64,000 nucleotides of DNA, taken from contig OZ024741.1 of NCBI GenBank assembly GCA_964016885.1, positions 404,116,001 to 404,180,000 on the forward strand, in the 5' to 3' direction. The stretch is from Eledone cirrhosa (lineage: Eukaryota). The notes under the pieces are model-generated. The model made no database searches. It was not told the DNA's origin and worked only from the letters and a program-made list of their open reading frames with translations. The stretch's first letter is position 1. Every line of letters begins with the position of its first letter. This document shows positions 1,986 to 64,000 of this stretch, piece by piece. Made by a program: the position numbers and the translations under genes.

Positions 1986-2031
<46 letters not shown>

Positions 2032-2067
2032 TACACAATAATCAAAGCTATGTTCAAATCATTTTAT

Positions 2068-2644: not shown

Positions 2645-2794
<150 letters not shown>

Positions 2795-2853
2795 TGTGTG
2801 TATTAATATTAACAATATTAATAAATGAAAAATATCTTTATACCTTATTTATG

Positions 2854-2905
2854 TTATTATACGTATTTCAAGGACACAAAAGTTTAGTGTGCTTTCATCA
2901 GATAA
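2854..2905 (-). ncRNA. Minimal type I hammerhead ribozyme motif
   Basis: Minus strand: ttat CTGATGA aagcacac..gtgtcctt GAAAT acgt ATA ataa, with palindromic stem III (tacgta). Same family as 14815 and 48345. Confidence 0.7.
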
Positions 2906-4082
2906 AATATAATATTTGGTGTTAAGATATTGACATACCTTCGCATAGACTTAATAGTATAAGCTCGCTAAAATTGTTAATATTAATAATACTCCGGATA
3001 AATACTGTAGTGTGCTTCAAATCTGTTATAACATTAACTTTGTTGAATGATAATCAACAAATCATATAACTCATTGTTTATGTATATATATAAGTGTGTC
3101 TGTATATATATATATAGTGGTAAACAAAAAATGGAAGGTTCTATTCGTAGTAAGTAGTGGACACAGTTTTCAAGGGGCCAGTTCGGTATAGAGATAGTTC
3201 CACCTCAAATTAGCAACACATACTAGGATTGAAAATCCGTTGGTTGAAAAGCACGTCTTTGAGTATGGTTTGCTAATTTGTTGTGGAACTAACTCTCTCT
3301 CTCTCTTTCTCTCTCCCTCACGGCGAATTAAAATGTATTAGACACATTACAATCGTACTGTAATATGTCTAATAAATTTTAATTCGTTGCACCACTGATT
3401 CTCCGTTTCTGATGATATATATATTCGGATTTCTTTGTTTGTTGCCAATTCTGTGATCAATCCAGCGTTGGCCAGAAAACGATCGAATAAATAGGACAAT
3501 AATGTAATATTAAATTGTTATATATTTCTTTACAGTAATGAACTTGCTATTCAAAGACCTCTTTCGTGTCTTTAATTAAATGTTCAGCTCTGAGCATGAA
3601 ACCATAATGAAAGGAGAGCAATACAAAGCAAGACAACTACAAATATATTGAAGGAACTAAGACTTTATTCGTTGGACAAGGAAAAAAATTAATAGCTATT
3701 AAACAAATTGTATTTAGTTTAATTAACCTGGCTGCATCACGTTGCGGGCAGGAATATAATTTATATAGATGTTTGCCTTCGAGCTATAGCTGTTTCATAC
3801 AGTGAATAATTTAAACATTTTGCTAATTGTTACAATAATCAAACTACTTGTACATTTCAAACTAGACATGGCTGAGTGCTTAAGCAATTTCCTTTACAAT
3901 CACAGTCTTGATAACGACCAGAGTCAGAAACGACGTCGTCAAGAGTTACCAACTCTTAACTTCTGCTGGAATCCGCTAGACGGCGCTACGTCATCAGTTT
4001 CAAAATTCATAGCTAAAGGTTTTCAAAAGGTTTGCAAACATACCGTATATCGATAGATATACAAAATATTCATACTTATACT

Positions 4083-4113
<31 letters not shown>

Positions 4114-4288
4114 AAGGATACTATTTATGGTTATGTATATACTAAAACTTTTTATAGTTATATATATTTTAAACCCTGAACAGTGAAAGACAGTAATTTA
4201 TTACTACCTTATCACCAGTAAGATAAATAGCTCAATGTAATAACATCAGTTGTTCTACAGAGCAGTTATATAAAAATGACAGAATCAA

Positions 4289-4723
4289 TGTTCAAACCAT
4301 TTATTAGCTTACAATTGTTTCGTCCAAACCGAGGTTTGGTGTCTTCGGAGCAATTTTTCAATGATTGTTTACATACATGACCTCCTTTCCAACACAAGTG
4401 ACATACAGATACATATGTATATATTGATGCACAGTGGGGTGACATCCATTATAATATTTTTGCATGGCAATTTAAATTCAAAAATTAAAATCATATTAGA
4501 ACAAAATTAAAGTTAAAATACAACATCGGCAGTTTACGAAATTGCCATGCAAAAATATTTTAATGGATGTCACCCCACTGTGCATCAATATATACATATG
4601 TATCTGTATGTCTCTTGTGTTGGAAAGGAGGTCATGTATGTAAACAATCACTGAAAAATTGCTCCGAAGACTCCAAACCTCGGTTTGGACGAAACAATTG
4701 TAAGCTAATAAATGGTTTGAACA
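4289..4723. mobile_element. PLE-derived foldback: ~185-bp inverted arms, each with a hammerhead motif
   Basis: 4289-4473 is the near-perfect reverse complement of 4539-4723. Hammerhead on + at 4661-4705: gct CCGAAGA ctccaaacc-tc-ggtttggac GAAAC aatt GTA agc; mirror copy on - at 4307-4351. Confidence 0.8.
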
Positions 4724-16132: not shown

Positions 16133-16565
16133 AATACTCTCGTGGAATGACCAAATGAGTTCAAATCCCACCGTGGTTAAATTTGCCTTTCATCCATTAA
16201 ATTAATTCTTGCAAGATTTCACAGCTGTATCATCACTCCTTCATAGACTGACCAAGATACTCTCATGGAATGACCAAATGAGGTTTATTTTTCAACATAG
16301 TCCCTGGAAAAAAACAATGCAATTATTAATTAGAAAATTTGAAATTATTGCATTCAAGATTTCACAGCCCTATCATGATTCCTTTGAAGGCTGACCAACA
16401 TACTTTCATGAGATGACCAAATGAGGTTTATTTTTCAACATAGTCCCTGGAAAGAAACAATGTAGTTATTAATAAGAAGAGTTGAAATTAATGAATGTAC
16501 GATTTCACAGCTCTAGCATCATTCCTTCATAGTCAATCAATGAACGTTTCAGTCTACCTTCGTAT
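16133..16565. repeat. Tandem ~145-bp units of the repeat family seen at 840-1115
   Basis: gatttcacagc recurs at ~16215, ~16359 and ~16501; atgaccaaatgag occurs three times. Confidence 0.75.
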
Positions 16566-17535: not shown

Positions 17536-18074
17536 ATGATTGTACTTTATTTTATTGACCCCAGAAGGGTGAAAGCAAAGTTGACATCTTTGGAATTTGA
17601 ACTGAGAGGGTAAAAAGCAGAAATACTGTTCAACATTTCTCAGCGTCCATACCAATTGTGACAACGTAAAGCCTACATTCACACAAATAATGGCTCTACT
17701 TTTTAAAATAATTGTTTCTACTTTTGGCACAAGGCCAGCAATAACCCAGTACATTACTGGTACTTTATTTTATCGACCCTGTAAGGATGAAAGGCAAAGT
17801 TAACCTCAGCGGGATTTGAACTCAGACCATAAAGGGCCGTAACTCTTTGCTGCAAAGCATGGTGTCAGACCCTCTACCGATACTGCCAAGAAATAATTGT
17901 TTCTACTTTTGACACTAGGCCAGCAATTATCCCAGTGTATTACTGGTACTTTATTTTATCGACCCCGTAAGGATGAAAGGCAAAGTTAACCTCGGCGGGA
18001 TTTGAACTCAGATCATAAAGGGCCGTAACTCTTTCCTGCAAAGTATGGTGTCCGATACTGCCAGTCCACCGCCT
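17536..18074 (-). mobile_element. Three adjacent Nin-domain-like SINE copies
   Basis: Repeated actggtactttattttatcgaccc.gtaaggatgaaaggcaaagttaacctc.gcgggatttgaactcag at ~17755 and ~17942; a degenerate copy at ~17540. Confidence 0.85.
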
Positions 18075-30278: not shown

Positions 30279-30672
30279 TACATATATATATATATATGTA
30301 TGTATGTATGTAAAGTATGCATGTATGAATGTATGTATGTATATATGTATGCCCACATATACACCAATAATATATATATTTTATTATTTTATTATTTGAT
30401 ATTACAATTATGTATCTATTCATTCATTTGAGTTTCCTGGCGCAATGGTAAGTATTCTGAGAGACATAAGTTGGTATCTCTTGTTACCAGTGTATGGCTG
30501 CAGCAGTTGTAAAATCAATAATAGTACGACACATTGCCAGGAACAGACATCCATTAATACAGGAAGATGGGTACACACGTATACTACACTTTTAAGTTCC
30601 ACTTCAATAGCGCTCGAGCCGCATTACAGAGTTTTTTTTAAATATAATGCTAAATTATTTTCAGTGTTATTT

Positions 30673-32827
30673 GGTGGATTGGCAGTAGCGGTAGAGGGTC
30701 CGACACCATGCTAGGGTGGTGGATTGACAGTATCGGTAGAGGGTCGGACACCATGCTAGGGTGGTGGATTGACAGTATCGGTAGAGGGTGGGACACCATG
30801 CTAGGGTGGTGGATTGGCAGTAGCGGTAGAGGGTGGGACACCATGCTAGGGTGGTGGATTGGCAGTAGCGGTAGAGGGTGGGACACCATGCTAGGGTGGT
30901 GGATTGGCAGTAGCGGTAGAGGGTGGGACACCATGCTAGGGTGGTGGATTGGCAGTAGCGGTAGAGGGTGGGACACCATGCTAGGGTGGTGGATTGGCAG
31001 TATCGGTAGAGGGTCGGACACCATGCTAGGGTGGTAGATTGGCAGTATCGGTAGAGGGTGGGACACCATGCTAGGGTGGTGGATTGGCAGTAGCGGTAGA
31101 GGGTCAGACACCATGCTAGTGTGGTGGATTGGCAGTATCGGTAGAGGGTCGGACACCATGCTAGGGTGGTGGATTGGCAGTATCGGTAGAGGGTCGGACA
31201 CCATGCTAGGGTGGTGGATTGGCAGTAGCGGTAGAGGGTGGGACACCATGCTAGGGTGGTGGATTGGCAGTATCGGTAGAGGGTGGGACACCATGCTAGT
31301 GTGGTGGATTGGCAGTATCGGTAGAGGGTCGGACACCATGCTAGGGTGGTGGATTGGCAGTATCGGTAGAGGGTCGGACACCATGCTAGGGTGGTGGATT
31401 GGCAGTATCGGTAGAGGGTCGGACACCATGCTAGGGTGGTGGATTGGCAGTAGCGGTAGAGGGTCGGACACCATGCTAGGGTGGTGGATTGGCAGTATCG
31501 GTAGAGGGTGGGACACCATGCTAGGGTGGTGGATTGGCAGTATCGGTAGAGGGTCGGACACCATGCTAGGGTGGTGGATTGGCAGTAGCGGTAGAGGGTG
31601 GGACACCATGCTAGGGTGGTGGATTGGCAGTATCGGTAGAGGGTGGGACACCATGCTAGTGTGGTGGATTGGCAGTATCGGTAGAGGGTCGGACACCATG
31701 CTAGGGTGGTGGATTGGCAGTATCGGTAGAGGGTCGGACACCATGCTAGGGTGGTGGATTGGCAGTATCGGTAGAGGGTCGGACACCATGCTAGGGTGGT
31801 GGATTGGCAGTAGCGGTAGAGGGTCGGACACCATGCTAGGGTGGTGGATTGGCAGTATCGGTAGAGGGTGGGACACCATGCTAGGGTGGTGGATTGGCAG
31901 TATCGGTAGAGGGTCGGACACCATGCTAGGGTGGTGGATTGGCAGTAGCGGTAGAGGGTGGGACACCATGCTAGGGTGGTGGATTGGCAGTATCGGTAGA
32001 GGGTGGGACACCATGCTAGGGTGGTGGATTGGCAGTATCGGTAGAGGGTCGGACACCATGTTAGGGTGGTGGATTGGCAGTAGCGGTAGAGGGTGGGACA
32101 CCATGGTAGGGTGGTGGATTGGCAGTATCGGTAGAGGGTGGGACACCATGCTAGGGTGGTGGATTGGCAGTATCGGTAGAGGGTCGGACACCATGCTAGG
32201 GTGGTGGATTGGCAGTAGCGGTAGAGGGTGGGACACCATGCTAGGGTGGTGGATTGGCAGTATCGGTAGAGGGTCGGACACCATGCTAGGGCAGTGGATT
32301 GGCAGTAGCGGTAGAGGGTGGGACACCATGCTAGGGTGGTGGATTGGCAGTATCGGTAGAGGGTGGGACACCATGCTAGTGTGGTGGATTGGCAGTATCG
32401 GTAGAGGGTCGGACACCATGTTAGGGTGGTGGATTGGCAGTAGCGGTAGAGGGTGGGACACCATGCTAGGGTGGTGGATTGGCAGTATCGGTAGAGGGTG
32501 GGACACCATGCTAGGGTGGTGGATTGGCAGTATCGGTAGAGGGTCGGACACCATGCTAGGGTGGTGGATTGGCAGTAGCGGTAGAGGGTGGGACACCATG
32601 CTAGGGTGGTGGATTGGCAGTATCGGTAGAGGGTCGGACACCATGCTAGGGTGGTGGATTGGCAGTATCGGTAGAGGGTGGGACGCCATGCTAGGGTGGT
32701 GGATTTGCAGTATCGGTAGAGGGTGGGACGCCATGTTAGGGTGGTGGATTGGCAGTAGCGGTAGAGGGTCAGACACCATGCTAGGGTGGTGGATTGGCAG
32801 TATCGGTAGAGGGTCGGACGCCATGCT
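30673..32827 (+). repeat. 45-bp tandem array 1 (~48 units) derived from the SINE 5' head
   Basis: Unit gggtggtggattggcagta(t/g)cggtagagggt(c/g)ggacaccatgcta; runs directly into a SINE body at 32828. Confidence 0.95.
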
Positions 32828-32998
32828 TTGCAGCAAAGAGTTACGCGCCTTTATGAACTGAGTTCAAATCCCGCCAAGGTTAACTCTGCCTTTCATCCTT
32901 ACGGCGTCGATAAAATAAAGTAACAGTCACGCACTGGGATCGATTTAATCGACTTCCCCCTCCCCCAAAAGGCCTTGTGCGTTTATAAGACGCAATTA
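32783..32998 (+). mobile_element. Nin-domain-like SINE terminating array 1
   Basis: The last unit continues ttgcagcaaagagttacg...gagttcaaatcccgcc..gcctttcatccttacggcgtcgataaaataaagt. Confidence 0.9.
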
Positions 32999-33344
32999 TT
33001 ATTGTATTATTATTAGTATTAAATTATGTCTGTAAATTAAAGGTGGACAACTGGGAGAGGGTACTTGCCCTGGTGGTCTGGGTCACTGTGGCTTTTTAAT
33101 GGGCTTTCTCCACGATTGTCCCTCGGAAGTCTCCCCCGTATTGGGGAATTTTTCATTGTTATTTTTTTGTTACATGCTCTGTTTTTGTTTTTTACACGCA
33201 GAAATGCCCATTTGTACCGTCCTGTATTGTCCTCTATTGTCCTTAATGTCTACTTTATGTAAACCCTTGCGGTTAATACAGAAAGCATTATTAGTATTAT
33301 TGGCTATATTATTATTAGTATTATTGGCAGTATTTTTATTAGTA

Positions 33345-33705
33345 TTATTGGCAGTATTGGTGGATTGGCAGTTTCGGTAGAGCGTCCGACAACATGCTTT
33401 GTGACATAGAGTTACGTTCGTATTTTGTTCTGAGGTCAAACCCCATCGAGATTATGTTTCCCCTCCCCAAATATTTCTGGGCCTGTTGCTTAAATTAGAA
33501 ACCATTATTATTATTGGCAGTATCGGTAGAGCATCGAACAACATGCTTTGTGGCATAGACTTACGGCCCATTGCATTCAGTATTTAAATCCTGCCTACAC
33601 TAGCTTTACCTTTCATCCTTACAGGTTCGGTAAAATAAAGTACCAGTAATACACTGATTTATTGCTGGCCTTGTGCCTAAAGTAGAAACAATTATTGTTG
33701 GCAGA
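33345..33705 (+). mobile_element. Two older tandem SINE copies upstream of array 2
   Basis: Heads at ~33360 and ~33515 with B-box and Nin-like segments and (att)n tails. Confidence 0.75.
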
Positions 33706-33709
33706 ATTG

Positions 33710-36700
33710 GGGTGGTGGATTGGCAGTATCGGTAGAGCGTGGGACACCATGCTAGGGTGGTGGACGGGCAGCATAGGTAGAGGCTGGGACGCCATACTAG
33801 GGTGGTGGATTGGCAGTATCGGGGCAGGGACGGACACCATGTTAGGGTGGTGGATTGGCAGTATCGGTAGAGGGTGGGACACCATGCTAGGGTGGTGGAT
33901 TGGCAGTATCAGTAGAGGTTCGGACACCATGCTAGGGGGTGGATTGGCAGTATCGGTAAAGGGTCGGACACCATGCTAGGGTGGGGGATTGGCAGTATCG
34001 GGGGAGGGTCGGACACCATGCTAGGGTGGTGGATTGGCAGTATCGGGGGAGGGTCGGACACCATGCTAGGGTGGTGGATTAGCAGTATCGGTAGAGGGTC
34101 GGACACCATACTAGGGTGGTGGATTGGCAGTATCGGTAAAAGGTCGGACACCATGTTAGGGTGGTGGATTGGCAGTATCGGTAAAGGGTCGGACACCATG
34201 TTAGGGTGGTGGATTGGCAGTATCGGTAAAGGGTCGGACACCATGTTAGGGCGGTGGATTGGCAGTATCGGTAGAGGGTCGGAAACCATACTAGGGGGTG
34301 GATTGGCAGTATCGGTAGAGGTTGGGACACCATGCTAGGGTGACGGATTGGCAGTATCGGTAGAGGGTGGGACACCATGCTAGGGAGGTGGATTGGCAGT
34401 ATCGGGGGAGGGTCGAACACCATGCTAGGGTGGTAGATTGGCAGTATCGGTAGAGGGTGGGAAACCATGCTAGGGAGGTGGATTGGCACTATCGGTAGAG
34501 GGTGGGACACCATGCTAGGGTGGTGGATTGGCAATATCTGGGGAGGGTCGGACACCATGCTAGGGTGGTGGATTGGCAGTATCGGGGGAGGGTCGGACAC
34601 CATGCTAGGGTGGTGGATTGGCAGTATCGGTAGAGGGTCGGACACCATGCTAGGGTGGTGGATTAACAGTATCGGTAGAGGGTGGGACACCATGCTAGGG
34701 TGGTGGATTGGCAGTATCGGTAGAGGGTGGGACACCATGTTAGGGCGGTGGATTAGCAGTATCGGTAGAGGGTCAGACACCATGCTAGCGGGTGGATTGG
34801 CAGTATCGGTAAAGGGTGGGACACCATGTTAGGGTGGTGGATTGGCAGTATCGGTAAAGGGTCGGACACCATGTTAGGGCGGTGGATTGGCAGTATCGGT
34901 AGAGGGTGGGACACCATGCTAGGGAGGTGGATTGGCAGTATCGGTAGAGGGTGGGACACCATGCTGGGTGGTGGATTGGCAGTATCGGTAGAGGGTCGGA
35001 CACCATGATAGGGAGGTGGATTGGCAGTATCGGTAGAGGGTCGGACACCATGCTAGGTTGGTAGATTGACAGTATCCGTAGAGGTTGGGACACCATGCTA
35101 GGGTGGTGGATTGGCAGTATCGGTAGAGGGTCGGACACCATGCTAGGGTGGTGGATTGGCAGCATAGGTAGAGGCTGTGACGCCATGCTAGGGTGGTGGA
35201 TTGGGAGTATCGGGGGAGGGACGGACACGATGCTAGGGTGGTGGATTGGCAGTTTCTGTAGAGGTTTGGACACCATGCTAGGGGGTGGATTGGCAGTATC
35301 GGTAAAGGGTCGGACACCATGTTAGGGCGGTGAATTGGCAGTATCGGTAGAGGGTGGGACACCATGCTAGGGTGGTGGATTGGCAGTATCGGGGGAGGGT
35401 CGGACACCATGCTAGGGTGGTGGATTGACAGTATCGGTAGAGGGTCGGAAACCATACTAGGGGGTGGATTGGCAGTATCGGTAAAGGGTCGGACACCATG
35501 TTAGGGTGGTGGATTCGCAGTATCGGTAAAGGGTCGGACACCATGTTAGGGCGGTGGATTGGCAGTATCGGTAGAGGGTGGGACACCATGCTAGGGTGGT
35601 GGATTGGCAGTATCGGTAGAGGGTGGGACAGCATGCTAGGGTGGTGCATTGGCAGTATCGGTAGAGGGTCGGACACCATGCTAGGGTGGTGGATTGGCAG
35701 TATCGGTAGAGGGTGGGACACCAAGCTAGGGAGGTGGATTCGCAGTATCGGGGGAGGGTCGAACACCATGCTAGGGTGGTAGATTGGCAGTATCGGTAGA
35801 GGGTGGGACACCATGCTAGGGAGGTGGATTGGCACTATCGGTAGAGGGTCGGACACCATGCTAGGGTGGTGGATTGGCAGTATCGTTAGAGGGTGGGACA
35901 CCATGCTAGGGAGGTGGATTGGCAGTATCGGTAGAGGGTCGGACACCATGCTAGGGTGGAGGATTAACAGTATCGGTAGAGGGTCGGACACCATGCTAGG
36001 GTGGTGGATTAACAGTATCGGTAGAGGGTCGGACACCATGCTAGGGTGGTGGATTGGCAGTATCGGTAGAGGGTGGGACACCATGCTAGGCAGGTGGATT
36101 GGCAGTATCGGTAGAGGGTCGGACACCATACTAGGGCGGTGGATTGGCAGTATCTGTAGAGGGTGGGACACCATGTTAGGGTGGTGGATTGGCAGTATCG
36201 GTAGAGGGTGGGACACCATGTTAGGGTGGTGGATTAATAGTATCGGTAGAGGGTGGGACACAGTGCTAGGGTGGTGGATTGGCAGTATCGGTAGAGGGTG
36301 GGACACCATGTTAGGGTGGTGGATTGGCAGTATCGGTAGAGGGTGGGACACCATGCTAGGGTGGTGGATTGGCAGTATCGGGGGAGGGTCGGACACCATG
36401 CTAGGGGGTGGATTGGCAGTATCGGTAAAGGGTCGGACACCATGTTAGGGTGGTGGATTGGCAGTATCGGTAGAGGGTGGGACACCATGCTAGGATGGTG
36501 GATTGGCAGTATCGGGGGAGGGTCGGACACCATGCTAGGGTGGTGGATTGGCAGTATCGGGGGAGGGTCGGACACCATGCTAGGGTGGTGGATTAGCAGT
36601 ATCGGTAGAGGGTCGGACACCATACTAGGGTGGTGGATTGGCAGTATCGGTAAAAGGTCGGACACCATGTTAGGGTGGTGGATTGGCAGTATCGGTAAAG

Positions 36701-39700
36701 GGTCGGACACCATGTTAGGGTGGTGGATTGGCAGTATCGGTAAAGGGTCGGACACCATGTTAGGGCGGTGGATTGGCAGTATCGGTAGAGGGTCGGAAAC
36801 CATACTAGGGGGTGGATTGGCAGTATCGGTAGAGGTTGGGACACCATGCTAGGGTGACGGATTGGCAGTATCGGTAGAGGGTGGGACACCATGCTAGGGA
36901 GGTGGATTGGCAGTATCGGGGGAGGGTCGAACACCATGCTAGGGTGGTAGATTGGCAGTATCGGTAGAGGGTGGGAAACCATGCTAGGGAGGTGGATTGG
37001 CACTATCGGTAGAGGGTGGGACACCATGCTAGGGTGGTGGATTGGCAGTATCTGGGGAGGGTCAGACACCATGCTAGGGTGGTGGATTGGCAGTATCGGG
37101 GGAGGGTCGGACACCATGCTAGGGTGGTGGATTGGCAGTATCGGTAGAGGGTCGGACACCATGCTAGGGTGGTGGATTAACAGTATCGGTAGAGGGTCGG
37201 ACACCATGCTAGGGTGGTGGATTGGCAGTATCGGTAGAGGGTGGGACACCATGTTAGGGCGGTGGATTAGCAGTATCGGTAGAGGGTCAGACACCATGCT
37301 AGCGGGTGGATTGGCAGTATCGGTAAAGGGTGGGACACCATGTTAGGGTGGTGGATTGGCAGTATCGGTAAAGGGTCGGACACCATGTTAGGGCGGTGGA
37401 TTGGCAGTATCGGTAGAGGGTGGGACACCATGCTAGGGAGGTGGATTGGCAGTATCGGTAGAGGGTGGGACACCATGCTGGGTGGTGGATTGGCAGTATC
37501 GGTAGAGGGTCGGACACCATGATAGGGAGGTGGATTGGCAGTATCGGTAGAGGGTCGGACACCATGCTAGGTTGGTAGATTGACAGTATCCGTAGAGGTT
37601 GGGACACCATGCTAGGGTGGTGGATTGGCAGTATCGGTAGAGGGTCGGACACCATGCTAGGGTGGTGGATTGGCAGCATAGGTAGAGGCTGTGACGCCAT
37701 GCTAGGGTGGTGGATTGGGAGTATCGGGGGAGGGACGGACACGATGCTAGGGTGGTGGATTGGCAGTTTCTGTAGAGGTTTGGACACCATGCTAGGGGGT
37801 GGATTGGCAGTATCGGTAAAGGGTCGGACACCATGTTAGGGCGGTGAATTGGCAGTATCGGTAGAGGGTGGGACACCATGCTAGGGTGGTGGATTGGCAG
37901 TATCGGGGGAGGGTCGGACACCATGCTAGGGTGGTGGATTGACAGTATCGGTAGAGGGTCGGAAACCATACTAGGGGGTGGATTGGCAGTATCGGTAAAG
38001 GGTCGGACACCATGTTAGGGTGGTGGATTGGCAGTATCGGTAAAGGGTCGGACACCATGTTAGGGCGGTGGATTGGCAGTATCGGTAGAGGGTGGGACAC
38101 CATGCTAGGGTGGTGGATTGGCAGTATCGGTAGAGGGTGGGACAGCATGCTAGGGTGGTGCATTGGCAGTATCGGTAGAGGGTCGGACACCATGCTAGGG
38201 TGGTGGATTGGCAGTATCGGTAGAGGGTGGGACACCAAGCTAGGGAGGTGGATTCGCAGTATCGGGGGAGGGTCGAACACCATGCTAGGGTGGTAGATTG
38301 GCAGTATCGGTAGAGGGTGGGACACCATGCTAGGGAGGTGGATTGGCACTATCGGTAGAGGGTCGGACACCATGCTAGGGTGGTGGATTGGCAGTATCGT
38401 TAGAGGGTGGGACACCATGCTAGGGAGGTGGATTGGCAGTATCGGTAGAGGGTCGGACACCATGCTAGGGTGGAGGATTAACAGTATCGGTAGAGGGTCG
38501 GACACCATGCTAGGGTGGTGGATTAACAGTATCGGTAGAGGGTCGGACACCATGCTAGGGTGGTGGATTGGCAGTATCGGTAGAGGGTGGGACACCATGC
38601 TAGGCAGGTGGATTGGCAGTATCGGTAGAGGGTCGGACACCATACTAGGGCGGTGGATTGGCAGTATCGGTAGAGGGTGGGACACCATGTTAGGGTGGTG
38701 GATTGGCAGTATCGGTAGAGGGTGGGACACCATGTTAGGGTGGTGGATTAATAGTATCGGTAGAGGGTGGTACACAGTGCTAGGGTGGTGGATTGGCAGT
38801 ATCGGTAGAGGGTGGGACACCATGCTAGGGAGGTGGATTGGCAGTATCGGTAGAGGGTGGGACACCATGTTAGGGTGGTGGATTAACAGTATCGGTAGAG
38901 TGTGGGACACCATGCTAGGGTGGTGGATTGGCAGTATCGGTAGAGGGTCGGACACCATGCTAGGGTGGTGGATTGGCAGTATAGGTAGAGGGTGGGGCAC
39001 CATGCTAGGGTGGTGGATTGGCAGTATCGGTAGAGGGTCGGACACCATGCTAGGGGGTGGATTGGTAGTAACGGTAGAGGGTCGGACGCCATGTTAGGGT
39101 GGTGGATTGGCAGTATCGGTAAAGGGTCGGACACCATGTTAGGTCGGTGGATTGGCAGTATCGGTAAAGGGTCGGACACCATGTTAGGGTGGTGGATTGG
39201 CAGTAACGGTAGAGGGTCGGACGCCATGTTAGGGTGGTGGATTGGCAGTATCGGTAAAGGGTCGGACACCATGTTAGTGCGGTGGATTGGCAGTATCGGT
39301 AAAGGGTCGGACACCCTTTTAAGGTGGTGGCTTTGCAGTATCGGTAAAGGGTCGGACACCATGTTAGGGCGGTGGATTGGCAGTATCGGTAGAGGGTGGG
39401 ACACCATGCTAGGGAGGTGGATTGGCACTATCGGTAGAGGGTGGGACACCATGCTAGGGTGGTGGATTGGCAGTATCGGTAGAGGGTCTGACAGAATGCT
39501 AGGGTGGTGGATTGGCAGTATCGGTAGAGGGTCGGACACCATGCTAGGGTGGTGGATTAACAGTACCGGTAGAGGGTGGGACACCATGCTAGGGTGGTGG
39601 ATTGGCAGTATCGGTAGAGGGTGGGACACCGTACTAGGGTGGTGGATTAACAGTACCGGTAGAGGGTGGGACACCATGCTAGGGTGGTGGATTGGCAGTA

Positions 39701-42700
39701 TCGGTAGAGGGTCGGACACCATGCTAGGGTGGTGGATTGGCAGTATAGGTAGAGGGTGGGGCACCATGCTAGGGTGGTGGATTGGCAGTATCGGTAGAGG
39801 GTCGGACACCATGCTAGGGGGTGGATTGGTAGTAACGGTAGAGGGTCGGACGCCATGTTAGGGTGGTGGATTGGCAGTATCGGTAAAGGGTCGGACACCA
39901 TGTTAGGTCGGTGGATTGGCAGTATCGGTAAAGGGTCGGACACCATGTTAGGGTGGTGGATTGGCAGTAACGGTAGAGGGTCGGACGCCATGTTAGGGTG
40001 GTGGATTGGCAGTATCGGTAAAGGGTCGGACACCATGTTAGTGCGGTGGATTGGCAGTATCGGTAAAGGGTCGGACACCCTTTTAAGGTGGTGGCTTTGC
40101 AGTATCGGTAAAGGGTCGGACACCATGTTAGGGCGGTGGATTGGCAGTATCGGTAGAGGGTGGGACACCATGCTAGGGAGGTGGATTGGCACTATCGGTA
40201 GAGGGTGGGACACCATGCTAGGGTGGTGGATTGGCAGTGTCGGTAGAGGGTGGGACACCATGCTAGGGAGGTGGATTGGCAGTATCGGTAGAGGGTGGGA
40301 CACCATGTTAGGGTGGTGGATTAACAGTATCGATAGAGTGTGGGACACCATGCTAGGGTGGTGGATTGGCAGGATCGGTAGAGGGTCGGACATCATACTA
40401 GGGCGGTGGATTGGCAGTATCGGTAGAGGGTGGGACACCATGCAAGGGTGGTGGATTGGCAGTATCGGTAGAGGGTCGGACACTGTGCTAGGGTGGTGGA
40501 TTGGCAGTATCGGTAGAGGGTGGGACACCATGCTATGGTGGTGGATTGGCAGTGTCGGTAGAGGGTGGGACACCATGCTAGGGTGGTGGATTGGCAGTGT
40601 CGGTAGAGGGTGGGACACAATGCTAGGGTGGTCGATTGGCAGTATCGGTAGAGGGTCGGACACCATGCTAGGGTGGTGGATTGGCAGTATCGGTAGAGGG
40701 TGGGACACCATGCTAGGGTGGTGGATTGGCAGTATCGGTAGAGGGTGGGACACCATGCTAGGGTGGTGGATTGGCAGTATCGGTAGAGGGTCGGACACCA
40801 TGCTAGGGTGGTGGATTAACAGTACCGGTAGAGGGTGGGACACCATGCTAGGGTGGTGGATTGGCAGTATCGGTAGAGGGTGGGACACCGTACTAGGGTG
40901 GTGGATTAACAGTACCGGTAGAGGGTGGGACACCATGCTAGGGTGGTGGATTGCAGTATCGGTAGAGGGTCGGACACCATACTAGGGCGGTGGATTAACA
41001 GTACCGGTAGAGGGTGGGACACCATGCTAGGGTGGTGGATTGGCAGTATCGGTAGAGGGTCGGACACCATGCTAGGGTGGTGGATTGGCAGTATCGGTAG
41101 AGGGTCGGACACCATGCAAGGGTGGTGGATTGGCAGTATCGGGGGAGTGTCGGACACCATACTAGGGCGGTGGATTAACAGTACCGGTAGAGGGTGGGAC
41201 ACCATGCTAGGGTGGTGGATTGGCAGTATCGGTAGAGGGTCGGACACTGTGCTAGGGTGGTGGATTGGCAGTATCGGTAGAGGGTCGGACACTGTGCTAG
41301 GGTGGTGGATTGGCAGTATCGGTAGAGGGTGGGACACCATGCTATGGTGGTGGATTGGCAGTGTCGGTAGAGGGTGGGACACCATGCTAGGGTGGTGGAT
41401 TGGCAGTGTCGGTAGAGGGTGGGACACCATGCTATGGTGGTGGATTGGCAGTGTCGGTAGAGGGTGGGACACCATGCTAGGGTGGTGGATTGGCAGTATC
41501 GGTAGAGGGTGGGACACCATGCTATGGTGGTGGATTGGCAGTGTCGGTAGAGGGTGGGACACCATGCTAGGGTGGTGGTTTGGCAGTGTCGGTAGAGGGT
41601 GGGACACCATGCTAGGGTGGTCGATTGGCAGTATCGGTAGAGGGTCGGACACCATGCTAGGGTGGTGGATTGGCAGTATCGGTAGAGGGTGGGACACCAT
41701 GTTAGGGGGGAGGATTGGCAGTATCGGTAGAGGGTCGGACACCATGCTAGGGTGGTGGATTGGCAGTATCGGTAGAGGGTCGGACACCATGCTAGGGTGG
41801 TGGATTGGCAGTATCGGTAGAGGGTCGGACACTGTGCTAGGGTGGTGGATTGGCAGTATCGGTAGAGGGTGGGACACCATGTTAGGGGGGAGGATTGGCA
41901 GTATCGGTAGAGGGTCGGACACCATGCTAGGGTGGTGGATTGGCAGTATCGGTAGAGGGTGGGACACCATGCTAGGGTGGTGGATTGGCCGTATCGGTAA
42001 AGGGTCGGACACCATGCTAGGGTGGTGGATTGGCAGTATCGGTAGAGGGTCGGACACCATGTTAGCGTGGTGGATTGGCTGTATCGGTAGAGGGTGGGAC
42101 ACCATGCTAGGGTGGTGGATTGGCAGTATCGGTAGAGGGTGGGACACCATGCTAGGGTGGTGGATTGGCAGTATCGGTAAAGGGTCGGACACCATGCTAG
42201 AGTGGTGGATAGGCAGTATCGGTAGGGGGTCGGACACCATGCTAGGGTGGTGGATTGGCAGTATCGGTAGAGGGTGGGACACCATGCTAGGGTGGTGGAT
42301 TGGCAGTATCGGTAGAGGGTGGGACACCATGCTAGGGTGGTGGATTGGCAGTATCGGTAGAGGGTCGGACACTATGCTAGAGTGGTGGATAGGCAGTATC
42401 GGTAGAGGGTGGGACACCATGCTAGGGTGGTGGATTGGCAGTATATGTAGAGGGTCGGACACCATGCTAGGGTGGTGGATTGGCAGTATCGGTAGAGGGT
42501 CGGACACTATGCTAGAGTGGTGGATAGGCAGTATCGGTAGAGGGTGGGACACCATGTTAGGGGGGAGGATTGGCAGTATCGGTAGAGGGTCGGACACCAT
42601 GCTAGGGTGGTGGATTGGCAGTATCCGTAGAGGGTGGGACACCATGCTAGGGTGGTGGATTGGCAGTATCGGTAAAGGTTCGGACACCATGCTAGGGTGG

Positions 42701-44403
42701 TGGATTGGCAGTATCCGTAGAGGGTGGGACACCATGCTAGGGTGGTGGATTTGTAGTATCGGTAAAGGGTCGGACACCATGCTAGGGTGGTGGATTGGCA
42801 GTATCGGTAGAGGGTCAGACACCATGCTAGGGTGGTGGATTGGCAGTATCGGTAAAGGGTCGGACACCATGCTAGGGTGGTGGATTGGCAGTATCCGTAG
42901 AGGGTGGGACACCATGCTAGGGTGGTGGATTTGTAGTATAGGTAGAGGGTCGGACACTATGCTAGGGCGGTGGGATTGGCAGTATCGGTAGACGGTCGGA
43001 CACCATACTAGGGCGGTGTATTAGCAGTATCGGTAGAGGGTGGGACAGCCTGTTAGGGTGGTGGATTGGCAGTATCGGTAGAGGGTCGGACACCGTGCTA
43101 GGGTGGTGAATTGGCAGTATCGGTAGAGGGTCGGACACCATGTTAGGGTGGTGGATTGGCAGTATCGGTAGAGGGTGGGACACCATACTAGGGCGGTGTA
43201 TTAGCAGTATCGGTAGAGGGTGGGACAGCCTGTTAGGGTGGTGGATTGGCAGTATCGGTAGAGGGTCGGACACCGTGCTAGGGTGGTGAATTGGCAGTAT
43301 CGGTAGAGGGTCGGACACCATGTTAGGGTGGTGGATTGGCAGTATCGGTAGAGGGTCGGACACCATGCTAGGGTGGTGGATTGGCAGTGTCTATAGAGGG
43401 TGGGACACCACGCTAGGGTGGTGGATTGGCAGTGTCTATAGAGGGTGGGACACCACGCTAGGGTGGTAAATTGGCAGTATCGGTAGAGGGTCGGACACCA
43501 TGCTAGGGTGGTGGATTGGCAGTATTGGTAAAGGGTCAGATACCATGCTAGGGTGGTGGATTGGCAGTATCGGTAGAGGGTCGGACACCATGCTAGGGTG
43601 GTGGATTGGCAGTGTCTATAGAGGGTCGGACACCATGCTAGGGTGGTGGATTGGCAGTGTCTATAGAGGGTGGGACACCACGCTAGGGTGGTAAATTGGC
43701 AGTATCGGTAGAGGGTCGGACACCATGCTAGGGCGGTAGATTGGCAGTATTGGTAAAGGGTCAGATACCATGCTAGGGTGGTGGATTGGCAGTATCGGTA
43801 GAGGGTCGGACACCATGCTATGGCAGTGGATTGGCAGTATCTGTAGAGGGTCGGACACCATTCTAGGGTGGTGGATTGGCAGTATCGGTAGAGGGTCGGA
43901 CACCATGCTAGGGCGGTGGATTGGCAGTATCTGTAGAGGGTCGGACACCATGCTAGGGTGCTGGATTGGCAGTATCGGTAGAGGGTCGGACACCATGCTA
44001 GGGGGTGAATTGGCAGTATCTGTAGAGGGTAGGACACCATGCTAGGGCGGTGGATTGGCAGTATCAGTAGAGGGTCGGACACCATGCTAGGGCGGTGGAT
44101 TGGCAGTATCGGTAGAGGGTGGGACACCATGCTAGGGAGGTGGATTGGCAGTATCGGTAGAGGGTCGGACACCATGCTAGGGCGGTGGATTGGCAGTATC
44201 GGTAGAGGGTCGGACACCATGCTAGGGTGGTGGATTGGCAGTATCGGTAGAGGGTCGGACACCATGCTAGGGCGGTGGATTGGCAGCATCGGTAGACGGT
44301 CGGACACCATGCTAGGGTGGTGGATTGGCAGTATCGGTAGAGGGTCGGACACCATGTTAGGGTGGTGGATTGGCAGTATCGGTAGAGGGTCGGACACTAT
44401 GCT
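33710..44403 (+). repeat. 45-bp tandem array 2 (~238 units) with higher-order repeats
   Basis: Same unit as array 1; rare variants recur at 2514-bp and 764-bp offsets; runs into a SINE body at 44404. Confidence 0.95.
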
Positions 44404-45350
44404 TTGCAGCAAAGAGTTATTGTCCGTGCCATTCTGAGTTCAAATCCCGCCGAGGTCAACTTTGCCTTTCAACCTTACAGGATCGATAAAATAAAGTACC
44501 AGTAATGTACTGGATAATTGCTGGCTGGTGCCAAAAGTAGAAACAATTATTATTGACAGAATCGCTACAGCGTCGGATAATATGCTCAAAGTTATGGCCT
44601 TTTACCTTCTGAGTTGAAATGCAGCCTAGATTTGTTTTGTCTTCCATCCTTACAGTGTCGATAAAATAAAGTACCAGTCACGTACCGGGGTCGATTTAAT
44701 TCACTTTCCCTCTCCTCTTCAAATTGCTGGCCTTGTGCCTAAAGTAGAAGCGATTATTATTATTATTATTATCGGCAGTTCCAGTAGAGCATCGGACAAT
44801 ATGCTTTGTGGCATAAAGTTAGGTTCGTTTATGTTATGAGTTCAAACCAAATGTTCCTGGCCCTGTTGCTTAAAGCAGACACAATTATTATTATTGGCAG
44901 TATTGGTAGATTGGCGATATCGGTAGAGCATCGGACAACATGCGTTGTGGCATTCTGTTACATCCCTTTACCTTGTAAGTTCAAATCTCACCGAGGTTAG
45001 TTTTGCCTTTCATCCTTACATGGTCGATAAAATAAAGTACCAGTAATGTACTGGGTAGATTTAATCGACTCACTGCCTTTCAAATTGCTGGCCTTGTGCA
45101 AAATATAGAAACAATTATTATTATTAGCAGTATTGGAGGATTAGTAATATCGGTAGAAAGTCTGACACCATGCTTTGTCGCATAGAGTTACAGCCCTCTA
45201 CGTTGTGTGTTCAAATCCCGCCGAGGTTAAGCTTTCTTTCATTTTTAAGGGGTCGATAAATTAAAGCACCAATAATGAACTGGGGTGATCTATTCCAATT
45301 TTCCGACCCCTCCTCACAAATTTCTGGACTTGTACCAACTTTAGAAATAA
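44360..45350 (+). mobile_element. Head-to-tail cluster of ~5 Nin-domain-like SINE copies
   Basis: B boxes at ~44437, ~44611, ~44839, ~44978 and ~45208, separated by gaaacaattattatt-like tails. Confidence 0.85.
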
Positions 45351-45947
45351 TAATTATAACTTTTACTCTTCATGTGTTAGTCAGAGATAGATTACTAATT
45401 AGTTCAAAGTTTTGAGATTGTTTCAGAAAGTCAATTGATCAGTGTAGGTCGATATATCGAGTTACAGGTCGTGGTTATATCACTAGTTGTTTCTAATATC
45501 GAAACCCCTGATCAATGTCACCGTCTTCCTCAGAAAAATATATATCGAAGAAACAACACCACAGCGTCCGGCCAGCCTCCTCTGTCACGAAAAGAATATA
45601 ATTATTGGATTTTCTAAATTTAAAGGTTTCTTGGGAACGTGCCGTCTGTAGAGCTCAAGCTATCTTAAATGATAGTCCTTAGTGAAATATGTATAACGGA
45701 GTTTTAAATAAACCTGAATCAACTGAATATAATCTCCGATCTTTTATTAACATATATATATATGCCAATACAGTTCGTCTCCGTTGATTTATTATTTTAA
45801 ATCGATATGGACAAACTGTAGTATAATAATTAGTATACTTCAATCTGGCTAAACTTTTCTTTCGCAATATATATACACGGATGTGTTGGTATCTGTGTTT
45901 TATCACATACATATTAATTTATATGTATATATATATATATATATATA

Positions 45948-46353: not shown

Positions 46354-46542
46354 TGTTTCTTCTTTTGGCACAAGGCCAGCAATTACTCAGTACATTACTG
46401 GTACTTTATTTTATCGACCCCGTAAGGATGAAAGGCAAAGTTAACCTCGGCGGGATTTGAACTCAGAATAGCAACGGCCGTAACTCTATGCCTCAAAGCA
46501 TGGAGTCCGATCCTTTACCGATACTGCCAATCCACCGCCTTC
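46354..46542 (-). mobile_element. Full-length Nin-domain-like SINE with a 19-bp target site duplication
   Basis: gatagataaatagaataat at 46335-46353 and 46543-46561; the element begins gaaggcggtggattggcagtatcgg. Confidence 0.92.
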
Positions 46543-46789: not shown

Positions 46790-48019
46790 AATGATTTCTA
46801 TTATAGGCCAAACTTTTTGTGGGGAGGGGATAGTCAATTAAATTGACCTAAGTGTATTACTGGTACTTTATTTTATCGACCACGTAAAGATGATAGGCAA
46901 AGCTAACCTCGGCTGGATTTGAACTCAGACCGTAAAGAGATGTAACTCTATGCTGCAAAGCATGATGTCCGACGTTCTACCTCGGCGGGATTTGAACTCA
47001 TAACGTAAAGGGATGTAACTCTATGCTGTATAGCAAGGTGTCCGACGTTCTACCGATTACTGCCAATCCACCGCCCTTAAAATGCTTTCTGGTTTAGGCA
47101 CAAGGGCAGCAATTTGAGATGGGAAAGTCGATTAAATCGACACTAGTTTGTTACTGGTACTTTATTTTATTGACCGCGGAAGGATGAAAGGCAAAGCTAA
47201 CCTCGGCAGGATTTGACTCTGAACGTAAAGGACCGTAATTTTATGCGATGAAGCATAGTTTCTGGAGCTCCACCGAAAAATCAATATAAATAATTGTTTC
47301 TACTTTTGGCACAAGGCCAGGAATAACCCAGTACATTACTGGTACTTTATTTTATCGACCCCGTAAGGATGCAAGGCAAAATTAACCTCGGCGGGATTTG
47401 AAATCAGAATGGCAAAGGCCGTAACTCTATGCTAGAAAGCATGGCGTCCGACCCTCTACTGATACTGCCAATCCACTGCCAGTATATAATGAAACATTGA
47501 ATTGGATGCAGTTGCAGCTTGTAGTAGTTAAATGATTTATATGGGCCAAGGAAGAGATGTTTTATTGCCTTCTTTGCAGGATGTTCGACATACTACTGTC
47601 ATTGCCTCCCTTACTTCCTCTTATATATATTACGGATTATCTGTTACAAACAGAATTTTCAGCACGAAACAGATTAAATCTCTAATCTGTCCGAGAGATG
47701 AAATAGTTATTGAGACGGTCTGTATACAATATTCTATATCTTCCGTTTGTTTCAGGTTAAATTTATCAAACCAATGTGGTATCTCAACCCTCGTAATTTT
47801 AGACACACAATTTACTGTGTTTATTTCTACATATATTATTATATAATTGTTTCTACTTTAGGCACAAGGCCAGCAATTAACCAGTGCATTACTGGTACTT
47901 TATTTTATCGACCCCGTAAGGATAAAAGGCAAAGTCAACCTCGGCGGGATTTGAACTCAGATCGTAAAGGAACGTAACTATGCTGGAAAGCATGGCGTTC
48001 GACCCTCTACCGATACTGC
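46790..48019 (-). mobile_element. Cluster of minus-strand Nin-domain-like SINEs (~46790-47075, 47085-47275, 47290-47480, 47845-48019)
   Basis: Repeated actggtactttattttat.gacc...aggcaaa...cctcggc.ggatttga. Confidence 0.85.
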
Positions 48020-57983: not shown

Positions 57984-60900
57984 CCACTCCCTCCTTAACC
58001 AGCCTCACGCTACCACCATTCCCTCCTTAGCCAGCCTCACACTACCACCATTCCCTCCTTAGCCAGTCTCACACTACCACTACTCCCTCCTTAGCCAGCC
58101 TCACACTACCACCATTCCCTCCTTAGCCAGCCTCACACTACCACCATTCCCTACTTAACCAGCCTCACACTACCACCACTCCCTCCTTAGCCAGCCTCAC
58201 ATTACCACCATTCCCTCCTTAACCAGCCTCACACTACCACCATTCCCTCCTTAACCAGCCTCACACTACCACCATTCCCTCCTTAACCAGCCTCACACTA
58301 CCACCATCCCCTCCTTAGCCAGCCTCGCGCTACCATCATTCCCTCCTTAACCAGCCTCACACTACCACCACTCCCTCCTTATCCAGCCTCACACTACCAT
58401 CATTCCCTCCTTAGCCAGCCTCACACTACCACCATTCCCTCCTTAACCAGCCTCACGCTATACCATTCCCTCCTTAGCCTGCCTCACACTACCACCACTC
58501 CCTCCTTAGCCAGCCTCACACTACCACCATTCCCTCCTTAGTCAGCCTCACACTACCACCATTCCCTCCTTAGCCAGCCTCACACTACCACCATTCCCTA
58601 TTTGCCAGCCTCACACAACCACCATTCCCTCCTTAACCAGCCTCACGTACCACCATACCCTCCTTAACCAGCCTCACACTACCACCATTCCCTATTTAGC
58701 CAGCCTCAATTTACCACCACACACTCCTTAATCAGCCTCACACTACCACCATTCCCTCCTTTACCAGCCTCACACTACCACCATTCCCTCCCTAACCAGC
58801 CTCACACTACCACCATTCCCACCTTAACCAGCCTCACGGTTCCATCATTCCCTCCTTAACCAGCCTCACACTACCACCATTCCCTCATTAACCAGCCTCA
58901 CACTACCACCATTCCCTCCTTAACCAGCCTCACACTACCACCACTCCCTCCTAAACCAGCCTCACACTACAACCAGTCCCTCCTTAGCCTGACTCACACT
59001 ACCACCATTCCCTCCTTAACCAGCCTCACACTACCACCATTCCCTCATTAACCAGCCTCACACTACCACCATTCCCTCCTTAACCAGTCACACACTACCA
59101 CCAGTCATTCCTTAGCCGGCCTCACTCTACCACCATTCCCTCCTTAAAGAAACTCGCGCTACCACCATTCCCACCTTAACCAAACTCACACTACCACCAC
59201 TCCCTCCTTAACCAGCCTCACACTACCATCAATCCTTCCGTAACCAGCCTCACACAACCACCACTCCCTCCTTAACCAAACTCACGCAACCACCACTCCC
59301 TCAGTAACCAGCCTCTCACTAGCACCATTCCCTCCTTAACCAGCCTCACGCTAGCACCACTCCCTCATTAACCAACTTCACACTACCACCACTCCCTCAT
59401 TAACCAGGCTCACGCTACCACCATTCCCTGCATAGCCACACTCATATTACCACCAATCCCTCCTTAACCAGCCTCACACTACCATCCATCCCTCATTAAC
59501 CAGCCACACACTACCACCACTCCCTCATTGACCAGCCTCACACTCCCACCATTCCCTCCTTAGCCAGCCTCACACTACCACCATTCCCTGCTTAGCCATA
59601 CTCACACTACCACCATTCCCTCCACAGCCATCCTCACACTACCACCATTCCCTCTTTAGCCAGCCTCTCATTACCACCACTACCTCCTTAGTCAGCCTCA
59701 CACTACCACACCTCCCTCCTTAGCCAGCCTCACACTACCACCACTAACTACTTAACCAGCCTCACACTACCACCATTCCCTCCTTAGCCACCCTCACACT
59801 ACCACCACTCCCTCCTTAGCCAGCCTCACACTACCACCATTCCCTCCTTAGCCAGACTCACACAACCACCACTCCCTCCTTAGCCAGCCTCACACTACCA
59901 CCACTCCCTCCTTAACCAGCCTCACCCTACCACCGTTCCCTCCTTAGCCAGCCTCACACTACCACCATTCCCTCCTTAGCAAGCCTCACACTACCACCAT
60001 TCCCTCCTTAGCAAGCCTCACACTACCACCATTCCCCCCTTAGCCACCCTCACACTACCACCACTCCCTCCTTAGCAAGCCTCACAATACCACCATTCCC
60101 TCCTTAGCCAGCCTCACACTACCACCATTCCTTCCTTAACCACCCTCACACTACCACCATTCCTCCTTAGCCACCCTCACACTACCAGCACACCCTCCTT
60201 AGCCAGCCTCACACTACCACCATTCCCTCCTTACCCAGCCTCACACTACCACCATTCCTTCCTTAACCACCCTCACACTACCACCATTCCTCCTTAGCCA
60301 CCCTCACACTACGACCACTCCCTCCTTAGCCAGCCTCACACTACCACCATTCTCTTCTTAGCCAGCCTCACACTACCACCATTCCTTCCTTAACCACCCT
60401 CACACTACCACCATTCCTCCTTAGCCAGCCTCACACTACCACCATTACCTCCTTAGCCAGCCTCACACTACCACAATTCCCTTCTTAGCAACCCTCACAC
60501 TACCACCATTACCTCCTTAGCGACCCTCACACTACCTCCATTCCCTCCTTAACCAGTCTCACACTACCACCATTCCTTCCTTAGCCAGCCTCACACTACC
60601 ACCATTCCCTCCTTAACCAGCCTCACACTACCACCACTCCCTCCTTAACCAGAGTCACACTACCACCATTCCCTCCTTAACCAGCCTCACACTACCACCA
60701 TTCCCTCCTTAACTACCCTCACACTACCACCATTCCCTACTTAGCCAGCCTCACACTACCACCATTCCCTCCTTAACTACCCTCACACTACCACCATTCC
60801 CTCCCTAGCCAGCCTCACACTACCACCATTCCCTCCTTAGCCAGCCTCACACTACCACCATTCCCTCCTTAGCCAGCCTCACCCTACCACCATTCCCTCC

Positions 60901-63900: not shown

Positions 63901-64000
63901 CACTACGTCCTTAGCCAGCCTCACGCTACCACCATTCCCTCCTTAGCCAGCCTCACACTACCACCATTCCCTCCTTAGCCAATGTCACACTACTACCATT
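57984..64000. repeat. 32-bp C-rich minisatellite array (~188 units; continues past the window end)
   Basis: Unit ccattccctcctta(g/a)ccagcctcacactacca; the period is shown by ccctccttag at 58021 and 58053. Confidence 0.95.

Follow-up and report, generated by a model that had tools for sequence, protein, structure and literature searches.

The question raised by a 64,000-nt stretch of the Eledone cirrhosa genome (contig OZ024741.1, positions 404,116,001 to 404,180,000; hereafter the window) is how two separate SINEs came to carry long tandem arrays of one and the same 45-bp unit. A sequence-only reading had taken the unit for the 5' end of the SINE, had estimated about 48 and 238 units, and had described each array as running seamlessly into one SINE body. 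These points were confirmed: the unit consists of an A plus 44 nt and is 86-88% identical to the TSD-flanked single-head copy at 46354-46542, 48 and 238 heads were counted, and both arrays continue unbroken into one body each (32828 and 44404). The features are collected in Table 1.

Table 1. SINE-head arrays and neighbouring SINE copies in the window
Feature	Position	Strand	Details
Array 1, 48 SINE heads (45-bp unit)	30672..32827	+	lengths as assembled
Array 1 SINE body, long-3' subtype, (ATT)n end	32828..32998	+	B box at 32860
Pair of tandem, older single-head SINEs separating the two arrays; internal deletion in the first	33355..33690	+	
Array 2 element TSD, left copy, degenerate, 19 bp	33691..33709	+	16/19 identical to 44546-44564
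Array 2, 238 SINE heads	33710..44403	+	last head 44360-44403; lengths as assembled
Array 2 higher-order duplication, period 56 units (2,514 bp)	34024..38781	+	2,238/2,244 bases identical
Array 2 higher-order duplication, period 17 units (764 bp)	38918..40221	+	540/540 identical over compared stretch
Array 2 SINE body, short-3' subtype	44404..44545	+	B box at 44436
Array 2 element TSD, right copy, 19 bp	44546..44564	+	
Remainder of older SINE interrupted by array 2 element, then three old tandem copies	44565..45360	+	
Single-head SINE, perfect 19-bp TSD; fixes element 5' end	46354..46542	-	

In array 1 all 47 inter-unit distances are 45 bp and the mean unit divergence is 3.8%. Its first head is 5'-truncated, beginning at about head position 4-5, while its last head (32784-32827) retains the ancestral G37 that the internal units have lost; a TSD was looked for around this array and none was found. 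In array 2 the distances are 45 bp in 220 of 237 cases, 44 bp in 16 and 46 bp in one, the mean divergence is 10%, and 110 distinct unit types are present. Array 2 with its body interrupts the head of an older SINE, with the degenerate TSD on either side, and its body differs from that of array 1 at 18 of 109 aligned bases. Between 30669 and 44560 the B box is matched only twice, once in each body. Both arrays share a unit type with G32 and A37 that is present in just 13 of 87 array segments; array 1 likely took units from array 2, 0.9 kb away, or was homogenised with it. The open reading frames inside the arrays are a by-product of the stop-free 45-bp unit, and no other convincing coding frame of at least 150 aa was found in the window.

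The SINE itself, which may resemble the octopus tRNA-SINEs, is present in at least 66,664 copies (exact 25-mer matches) and ends in a simple (ATT)n repeat; single-head copies are uniformly distributed along the chromosomes. Compared with the consensus sequences, the B box agrees and the A box departs by one mismatch at a conserved A; the A-box pattern gave one strict and 211 relaxed matches. ARAGORN and Rfam scans of the window returned no match, and the fold (z=-2.0) is not a cloverleaf. Membership in the MetaSINEs, defined by a 66-bp Meta domain after the tRNA head, found no support in a comparison by eye, in which the bivalve sequences in the available part of the source (PMC4824008) looked unlike the SINE body.

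The two arrays belong to a genome-wide family. The head-to-head 45-bp junction has 11,053 matches against 0 for a reversed-pattern control, so its abundance is not a matter of chance. Well over 100 loci are multi-headed, the smallest having 2 heads and the largest more than 1,000, and by extrapolation the family amounts to ~34,000 units and ~1.5 Mb. Dimers are the most frequent class (21 of 80 sampled loci), at least five heads occur in 43 of the 80, and all young body subtypes carry arrays. The sequence-only reading had proposed looking elsewhere for arrays that end in a SINE body in the same register and carry TSDs, and this expectation was supported. By script, 18 of 22 ends not picked for a body end in this way and three end in unrelated sequence; this survey stopped short of four limits of long arrays, namely the ends at C1:6.5, C1:20.7 and C3:357.3 Mb and, at C2:17.5 Mb, the start. 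The array end of L018 keeps the SINE 3' end with an internal deletion, and the array at C2:17.43 Mb likewise terminates in a SINE body. A TSD of at least 12 bp flanks 38 of 85 closed multi-head loci, compared with 2% of shuffled pairs and 22 of 44 single-head controls, and TSD-flanked arrays reach up to 66 heads. Furthermore, three other samples bearing the same species label yielded raw reads that cross the junction, some of these reads containing additional heads (runs X5 and X7, with junction-crossing contigs at depth 2-8 only, were left out), and a second organism label also shows the 45-bp register in abundance.

The suggestion that the same register arose anew at each array was not supported; the junction is inherited across loci. 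In 46 of 99 multi-head loci the first head starts at position 3 or later and yet the junction is complete, so that in about half of the loci it cannot be derived from local sequence. Junctions of 46 or 47 bp were not found, 25 of 25 matches being substitutions of the 45-bp form. Among 5,373 junctions T4 occurs in 91% and T43 in 30%, both recurring across chromosomes, and T43 occurs in 4 of the first 100 head-to-body matches; the ancestral C4 is usual in first heads and T4 in later ones. The end and the start of the head have at most one base in common. Head duplications in other registers, which arise de novo, have heterogeneous junctions, and 4 of 12 are located in the interiors of large chromosomes. 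A Pol III stop followed by end-jumping of reverse transcriptase (RT) was rejected as a recurrent source, since the predicted 46/47-bp junctions are absent; RT end-jumping could be the source of the single founding event. G-quadruplex drive was also rejected as weak, because no canonical G4 motif is present with loops up to 7 nt and G4Hunter values are low, averaging 0.76, with 4% of windows reaching 1.2. The two commonest derived variants shift the junction toward the telomere repeat TTAGGG, which might reflect selection by telomere-binding factors.

Multi-head loci are located distally, on a scale of tens of Mb rather than at pinpointed telomeres. On C1-C4, 23 of 25 lie within 55 Mb of an end; among single-head controls 6 of 25 do so (p=1.6e-6), and the median distances are 22 and 99 Mb; the dimers alone (n=5) are also distal (p=0.0008), as are seven new loci found with a second pattern (p=0.001). 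For 108 loci on C5-C28 the median nearest-neighbour distance is 1.14 Mb against 2.23 Mb under uniform placement (p=0.001), a null that keeps SINE density outside the model. Regional confinement is seen for a 50-bp register, in which ~138 of 147 matches were placed, all in C2:18.4-22.0 Mb, with up to nine unplaced. These loci represent six insertions within 3.5 Mb that have unrelated flanks, two with their own TSDs, and include two body subtypes; the extra five bases fit the start of only one of the six.

A single 45-bp junction recurs at numerous TSD-flanked insertions that are separate from one another and include all young body subtypes, and growth in place is evident from locus-specific variants, higher-order duplications and two paralogues bearing 4 and 21 heads. 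These observations are probably explained by ectopic, DNA-level transfer of heads into resident SINE copies, followed by in-place growth through unequal exchange. A break that falls within a single-head SINE or close to it would be repaired on a nearby array, with head and body as the homology; repair synthesis would cross one or more junctions and re-anneal in register, thereby adding heads, and the recipient would keep its TSD and most of its body. Such transfer would take place mostly where recombination and locus contact are high, at chromosome ends and on small chromosomes. If a small circle were reintegrated instead, the product would be identical to that of this repair.

As no pair of alleles before and after an event was seen, we infer the transfer, and several observations count for it: the imported junction of the 46 loci, the distal and clustered positions, the confinement of the 50-bp register, and the independence of head number from body lineage. 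The other copies with the L022 body haplotype are single-headed (6 of 6). In a 180-copy subfamily none of 30 copies on C1, almost all of them interior, is multi-headed, and three consecutive copies at C4:76-83.5 Mb are multi-headed with three different junction haplotypes, these three having been spotted first and the other C4 copies lying outside the sample. First heads are complete in 29 of 63 multi-head loci against 5 of 42 young singles, as expected if homology is needed on the left side, and are truncated at position 10 or later in 1 of 63 against 9 of 42. Transfer is also favoured by L021/L048, where a deletion between heads moved the array onto the body of the neighbouring SINE, and by the three-head loci L054, L088 and L087, in which the middle unit joins the 5' part of head 2 to the 3' part of head 1. 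Against transfer, sharing of non-CpG variants between arrays less than 5 Mb apart reached significance over all 65 arrays (p=0.012) but not over 42 arrays picked by one rule (p=0.28), and the 5'-side homology is at most 44 bp, which is short for homologous repair. Also against it are L022 (C8) and L069 (C12), which have a first-head variant, a 5' start and a rare body haplotype in common but different TSDs, and which are most simply explained by retrotransposition of a dimer. In favour of transfer, the accessible part of a published study (PMC7403614) contains an analogue, satellites entering other satellites. A broader proposition, that the satellite spreads infection-like through the SINE family, its one 45-bp junction being copied by proximity-dependent ectopic repair into any of tens of thousands of resident copies, each of them then a seed able to grow to ~100 kb, is offered tentatively and with rather more doubt than belief.

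It is unlikely, though worth serious weighing, that a two-headed SINE subfamily was instead retrotransposed as RNA, with Pol III starting at the second-last head, interior dimers collapsing to one head and arrays growing only in recombination-rich regions. TSDs around whole arrays as frequent as around singles, the prevalence of dimers, the C4-to-T4 order of the heads, the linked head and body variants on different chromosomes in L022 and L069, and the lack in array 1 of a run of four T that would stop Pol III all agree with it. However, separate masters would be required for every body subtype and junction haplotype, the dimers themselves are distal, none of 86 copies (50, 6 and 30) chosen solely by their body or head sequence had more than one head, and retrotransposed dimers cannot explain how a 50-bp register came to occupy six insertions inside a 3.5-Mb region. 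With L022/L069 as the sole exception, neither linkage of the junction to one body lineage nor parent-like dispersal was found, and retrotransposed dimers may account for a minority of loci. That every array originated independently, through re-priming by RT or slippage at the head and each time in one register, is highly improbable. The head is able to form a fold-back structure (-11.6 kcal/mol, without a shuffle control), its terminal TTT resembles a weak Pol III stop, and de novo duplications do arise in other registers, but these have variable junctions and are in part interior, whereas in the arrays the number of T at the junction is invariant, junction bases are missing from many first heads, T4 and T43 recur on different chromosomes, and the rare G32+A37 unit type is common to both window arrays.

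Selection for function, by which many A boxes with one B box alter TFIIIC/Pol III loading or form a boundary, would fit an array polarity that is real and general and a register that is abundant in the second organism label, but it is improbable, and no evidence for a Pol III or boundary role emerged. Paralogues differ in head number, which overall extends from 2 to more than 1,000, array units mismatch the A-box consensus, and the polarity is explained by mechanism alone. TFIIIC binding rests mainly on the B box, and only the last head would be within its reach. CpG is depleted to 0.034-0.038 per base in arrays, compared with 0.089 in the ancestral head, as in methylated repeats, which argues against function; the arrays are likely inert, methylated tandem DNA. 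That the long arrays are assembly artefacts is scarcely credible: the perfect identity across the 764-bp period and the failure of Logan contigs to span arrays point that way, but array 2 holds its 110 unit types, variant sets are specific to each locus, TSDs enclose as many as 66 heads, and raw reads of the three other samples cross the junction, some into further heads.

How satellites spread to many loci is an open question that is usually hard to test, since the recipients leave no record. If head transfer is true, SINEs are landing pads for a spreading satellite, and because each recipient bears an individual TSD and the signature of its subfamily, the sequence shows which locus was the donor, which the recipient and in what order events took place. 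If the spread is infection-like, every transfer would be datable and mappable, as the recipient keeps its own TSD and body, and zones rich in recombination, as well as former chromosome ends, could be traced from the clusters. Every stage between dimers and arrays close to 100 kb is represented in one genome, and TSD-flanked tandem elements should not necessarily be regarded as retrotransposed as such.

No report of a 45-bp SINE-head family was found in the literature, subscription journals and most supplements being outside the search. Minisatellites were reportedly derived from the first ~44 bases of Alu by Jurka and Gentles in 2006. The comparisons that follow draw on the accessible parts of the cited papers. 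Alu-derived minisatellites likewise consist of a portion of a SINE and are ascribed to short direct repeats flanking the segment at the individual locus, and duplications of part of an element at its 5' end are described (PMC3389668); here no such repeats were found that explain the junction, which is shared rather than re-made, and arrays reach tens of kilobases. The quasi-dimeric and quasi-oligomeric PRE1 SINEs of pig also contain a ~46-bp duplication with rare three-copy forms, but it is in the body and fixed in a retrotransposing subfamily, without long arrays in the part of the report available (PMC9327148). In Drosophila simulans and mauritiana, entry of Rsp-like into 1.688 clusters similarly left a rare junction common to loci, followed by intralocus expansion and higher-order repeats, and it was proposed that interlocus gene conversion or eccDNA had seeded repeats already present in abundance (PMC7403614). 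There a satellite entered another satellite on one chromosome, whereas here a dispersed retrotransposon serves as the pad and itself supplies the unit, namely its head, and each event is marked by the recipient's TSD. The architecture of a repeated SINE part with one complete terminal unit is already described in squamate reptiles as sSat1-3 (PMC10702118). As there, the tandem unit is part of a tRNA-SINE, here shorter than the SINE and having four or more monomers in the middle, and a longer terminal unit continues to the SINE end; arrays of a few to about a thousand units occupy many loci with a subtelomeric preference, here relative to uniform SINEs and on a scale of tens of Mb, and minor variants derive from the 5' or tRNA part. 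The sSat1-3 units measure ~70-290 nt, and most of them contain box B or body, whereas the present unit is 45 nt, contains the A box only and begins at the first base of the element; and while the available portion of that report describes neither TSD-flanked arrays nor a route of spread, here TSDs, an imported junction and regional spread were measured.

The two arrays of the window lie in an animal genome of 3.0 Gb, on a contig of 416 Mb and 12 Mb short of its end. Their unit (the head) consists of an A followed by the 44 bases that begin a SINE; a copy at 46354-46542, flanked by a target-site duplication (TSD), defines the limits of this SINE. At its end each array continues into a single SINE body carrying one B box, and the anatomy proposed in the sequence-only reading holds.

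Tandem arrays of the SINE head in the window
Array	Coordinates	Heads	Basis
Array 1	30672-32827	48	Tandem Repeats Finder and unit-by-unit cut
Array 2	33710-44403	238	Tandem Repeats Finder and unit-by-unit cut

The arrays represent two separate insertions, since their bodies belong to different subtypes, one with a long and one with a short 3' end, with 18 differences over 109 aligned bases. Array 2 and its body are surrounded by a degenerate 19-bp TSD and interrupt the head of an older SINE; internal duplications of 56 and of 17 units were found in this array. A unit type with G32 and A37 is common to both arrays (46% and 40%) and exceeds 2% in 13 of 87 array segments, at the window locus, C1:10.3-10.5 Mb, C2:21.9 Mb and weakly C1:20.7 Mb. 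The last head of array 1 retains the ancestral G37. The head-to-head junction was crossed by raw reads of three other samples under the same species label. It was also covered deeply by contigs assigned to a second organism label; of that depth, 93% showed a variant at head position 43.

Several other repeat features were noted. SINEs inserted in older copies, both in their (ATT)n tails and in their heads, resulting in head-to-tail clusters (window 33287-33700, 44546-45360 and 17728-18074), and such insertion was also seen in many control copies. A SINE subfamily of at least 180 copies (L217, L218, L054, L231-L260) carries a B-box substitution, yet was evidently retrotransposed. Another satellite, G/C-skewed, unrelated to the first and built of 32-bp units, spans window 57984-64000 and positions 1-4630 of the outside segment L195 (~10.6 kb in total; 188 units inside the window, 139 motif matches beyond), and was absent from every other locus examined. 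Another dispersed repeat (953-1067 and 16199-16529), with internal tandem periods of 45 and 143 bp, is unrelated to the SINE head.

Genome-wide, the junction pattern gave 11,053 exact matches, its reversed control 0, and the SINE head-to-body pattern 66,664. A pattern of junction plus last head gave 110 matches, and 80 of the 100 listed were studied, leaving out the window's own match, one small contig, four repeats inside one array, one locus already included and the final entries of the list. All 80 were multi-headed, with 2 heads in 21 loci, 3-4 in 16, 5-9 in 10, 10-30 in 22 and more in 11; a second pattern gave 67 matches, partly overlapping the first set. Several arrays are tens of kilobases long, and sampled stretches of one cover C1:10.32-10.42 Mb. 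The 80-locus sample includes the body by construction of its pattern. The expectation that arrays elsewhere end in a SINE body was borne out by script at 18 of 22 ends chosen independently of the body, but not at three that stop in unrelated DNA, and one body kept its 3' end with an internal deletion. TSDs, likewise expected, were confirmed: 38 of 85 closed multi-head loci had one of 12 bp or more (shuffled pairs 2%), as had 22 of 44 single-head controls (shuffled pairs 6%). At C1:10.31-10.42 Mb (L106 and L109), a ~97-kb array stops at its 3' end without a body; after it comes a copy of 10 heads that shares its 5' flank and does have a body. This arrangement suggests a segmental duplication across the array.

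Arrays grow in place. In three-head loci such as L054, L087 and L088, the middle unit combines the 5' allele of head 2 with the private allele that head 1 has on its 3' side, and long arrays are marked by variant sets of their own and by CpG loss. Two loci, L021 and L048, have 2.8 kb of flank in common but 4 and 21 heads, and the array of L021 is fused to the body of the next downstream SINE. The junction is inherited, not made anew at each locus, since 46 of 99 loci have a first head that does not begin before position 3 and nevertheless carry the element's full start at the junction. If the junction arose repeatedly at the RNA level, at the TTT that follows the head, the number of T should vary; no such variation was found at the junction, 25 of 25 matches being plain substitutions within the 45-bp unit. 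True de novo head duplications spanning the B box (19 matches at 12 loci, 4 in interiors of large chromosomes) had varied junctions. These three observations speak against the earlier proposal that the register was re-made each time by a reproducible mechanism such as reverse-transcriptase re-priming or slippage. Head duplications of ~85-95 bp that take in the B box occur at C19:16.17, C23:22.73 and C26:17.04 Mb, each giving two to five matches to the junction, and on small chromosomes only among the matches listed. In the window, an older SINE copy (46906-47054, minus strand) contains an unexpanded 73-bp internal duplication in another register, B box included.

Retrotransposition distributes the SINE evenly: on C1-C4, 19 of 25 control copies are >55 Mb from an end, and the 180-copy subfamily is dispersed along all four chromosomes. 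Multi-head loci on C1-C4 lie within 55 Mb of an end in 23 of 25 cases, including all five dimers, and the 108 on C5-C28 are clustered beyond expectation under a null of uniform placement, not SINE density. None of 86 copies selected by non-junction sequence (50, 6 and 30) was multi-headed, and arrays are present on every young body subtype. The strongest case for DNA-level transfer between nearby loci is a 50-bp register, with ~138 of 147 matches placed, every one in C2:18.4-22.0 Mb; its six insertions have unrelated flanks, four with 45-bp units mixed in, and represent two body subtypes, of which just one has a start that fits the five extra bases. In the 180-copy subfamily, three consecutive copies on C4 have multiple heads and differ in junction haplotype, versus 0 of 30 multi-headed on C1, a post hoc comparison because the three were noticed beforehand. 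Clusters of multi-head loci away from contig ends, at C7:40.9-47.4 and C4:76-83.5 Mb, may mark zones rich in recombination or places where chromosomes once ended.

DNA-level transfer of heads between nearby loci into resident SINEs is probably the main route of spread, which the distal and clustered loci, the arrays on all subtypes, the 50-bp cluster and the C4 trio fit. A break in a single-head copy would be repaired using a nearby array and then re-anneal in register, and reintegration of a circle would give an identical product. Retrotransposed dimers are unlikely to be the main route, though L022 and L069 are most simply explained so, since these two loci, despite different chromosomes and TSDs, agree in a variant of the first head, in their 5' start and in a rare body haplotype. 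Evenly distributed insertion of dimers, with later collapse in chromosome interiors, could have occurred, but leaves the 50-bp cluster unexplained. For variant sharing between neighbouring arrays, the significance seen over 65 arrays (p=0.012) was lost in the 42 chosen by one rule (p=0.28), which counts against transfer, and no allele pair displaying head gain was seen. Both processes may be at work; post-insertion spread through resident SINEs is the better-supported mechanism, testable with population data.

As to function, TFIIIC binds via the B box, from which an A box is in reach over ~100 bp, so that an A box could be used in one of the last two heads only; the units differ from the A-box consensus at its conserved A. 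CpG loss suggests array methylation, and a boundary role for the arrays is unsupported. Among 5,373 junctions, T4 (a CpG transition) occurs in 91% and T43 (not one) in 30%; in 23 of 65 arrays T43 makes up at least 15%. These variants change the junction to CTAGGGT or TTAGGGT, near the telomere repeat (e.g. window 34114-34250), and a relation to telomere-binding proteins is a possible lead.

No description of this SINE-head satellite family was found in the literature searched. The phenomenon is real, and its architecture matches that of squamate SINE-derived satellites, in which, according to PMC10702118, the terminal unit of most arrays is longer and extends to the SINE end, and subtelomeric regions are favoured. 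Looser precedents are Alu-derived minisatellites and PRE1 oligomers (PMC3389668, PMC9327148; review PMC9659126). The proposed route is similar to the model, outlined in PMC7403614, for Rsp-like entering 1.688 clusters.
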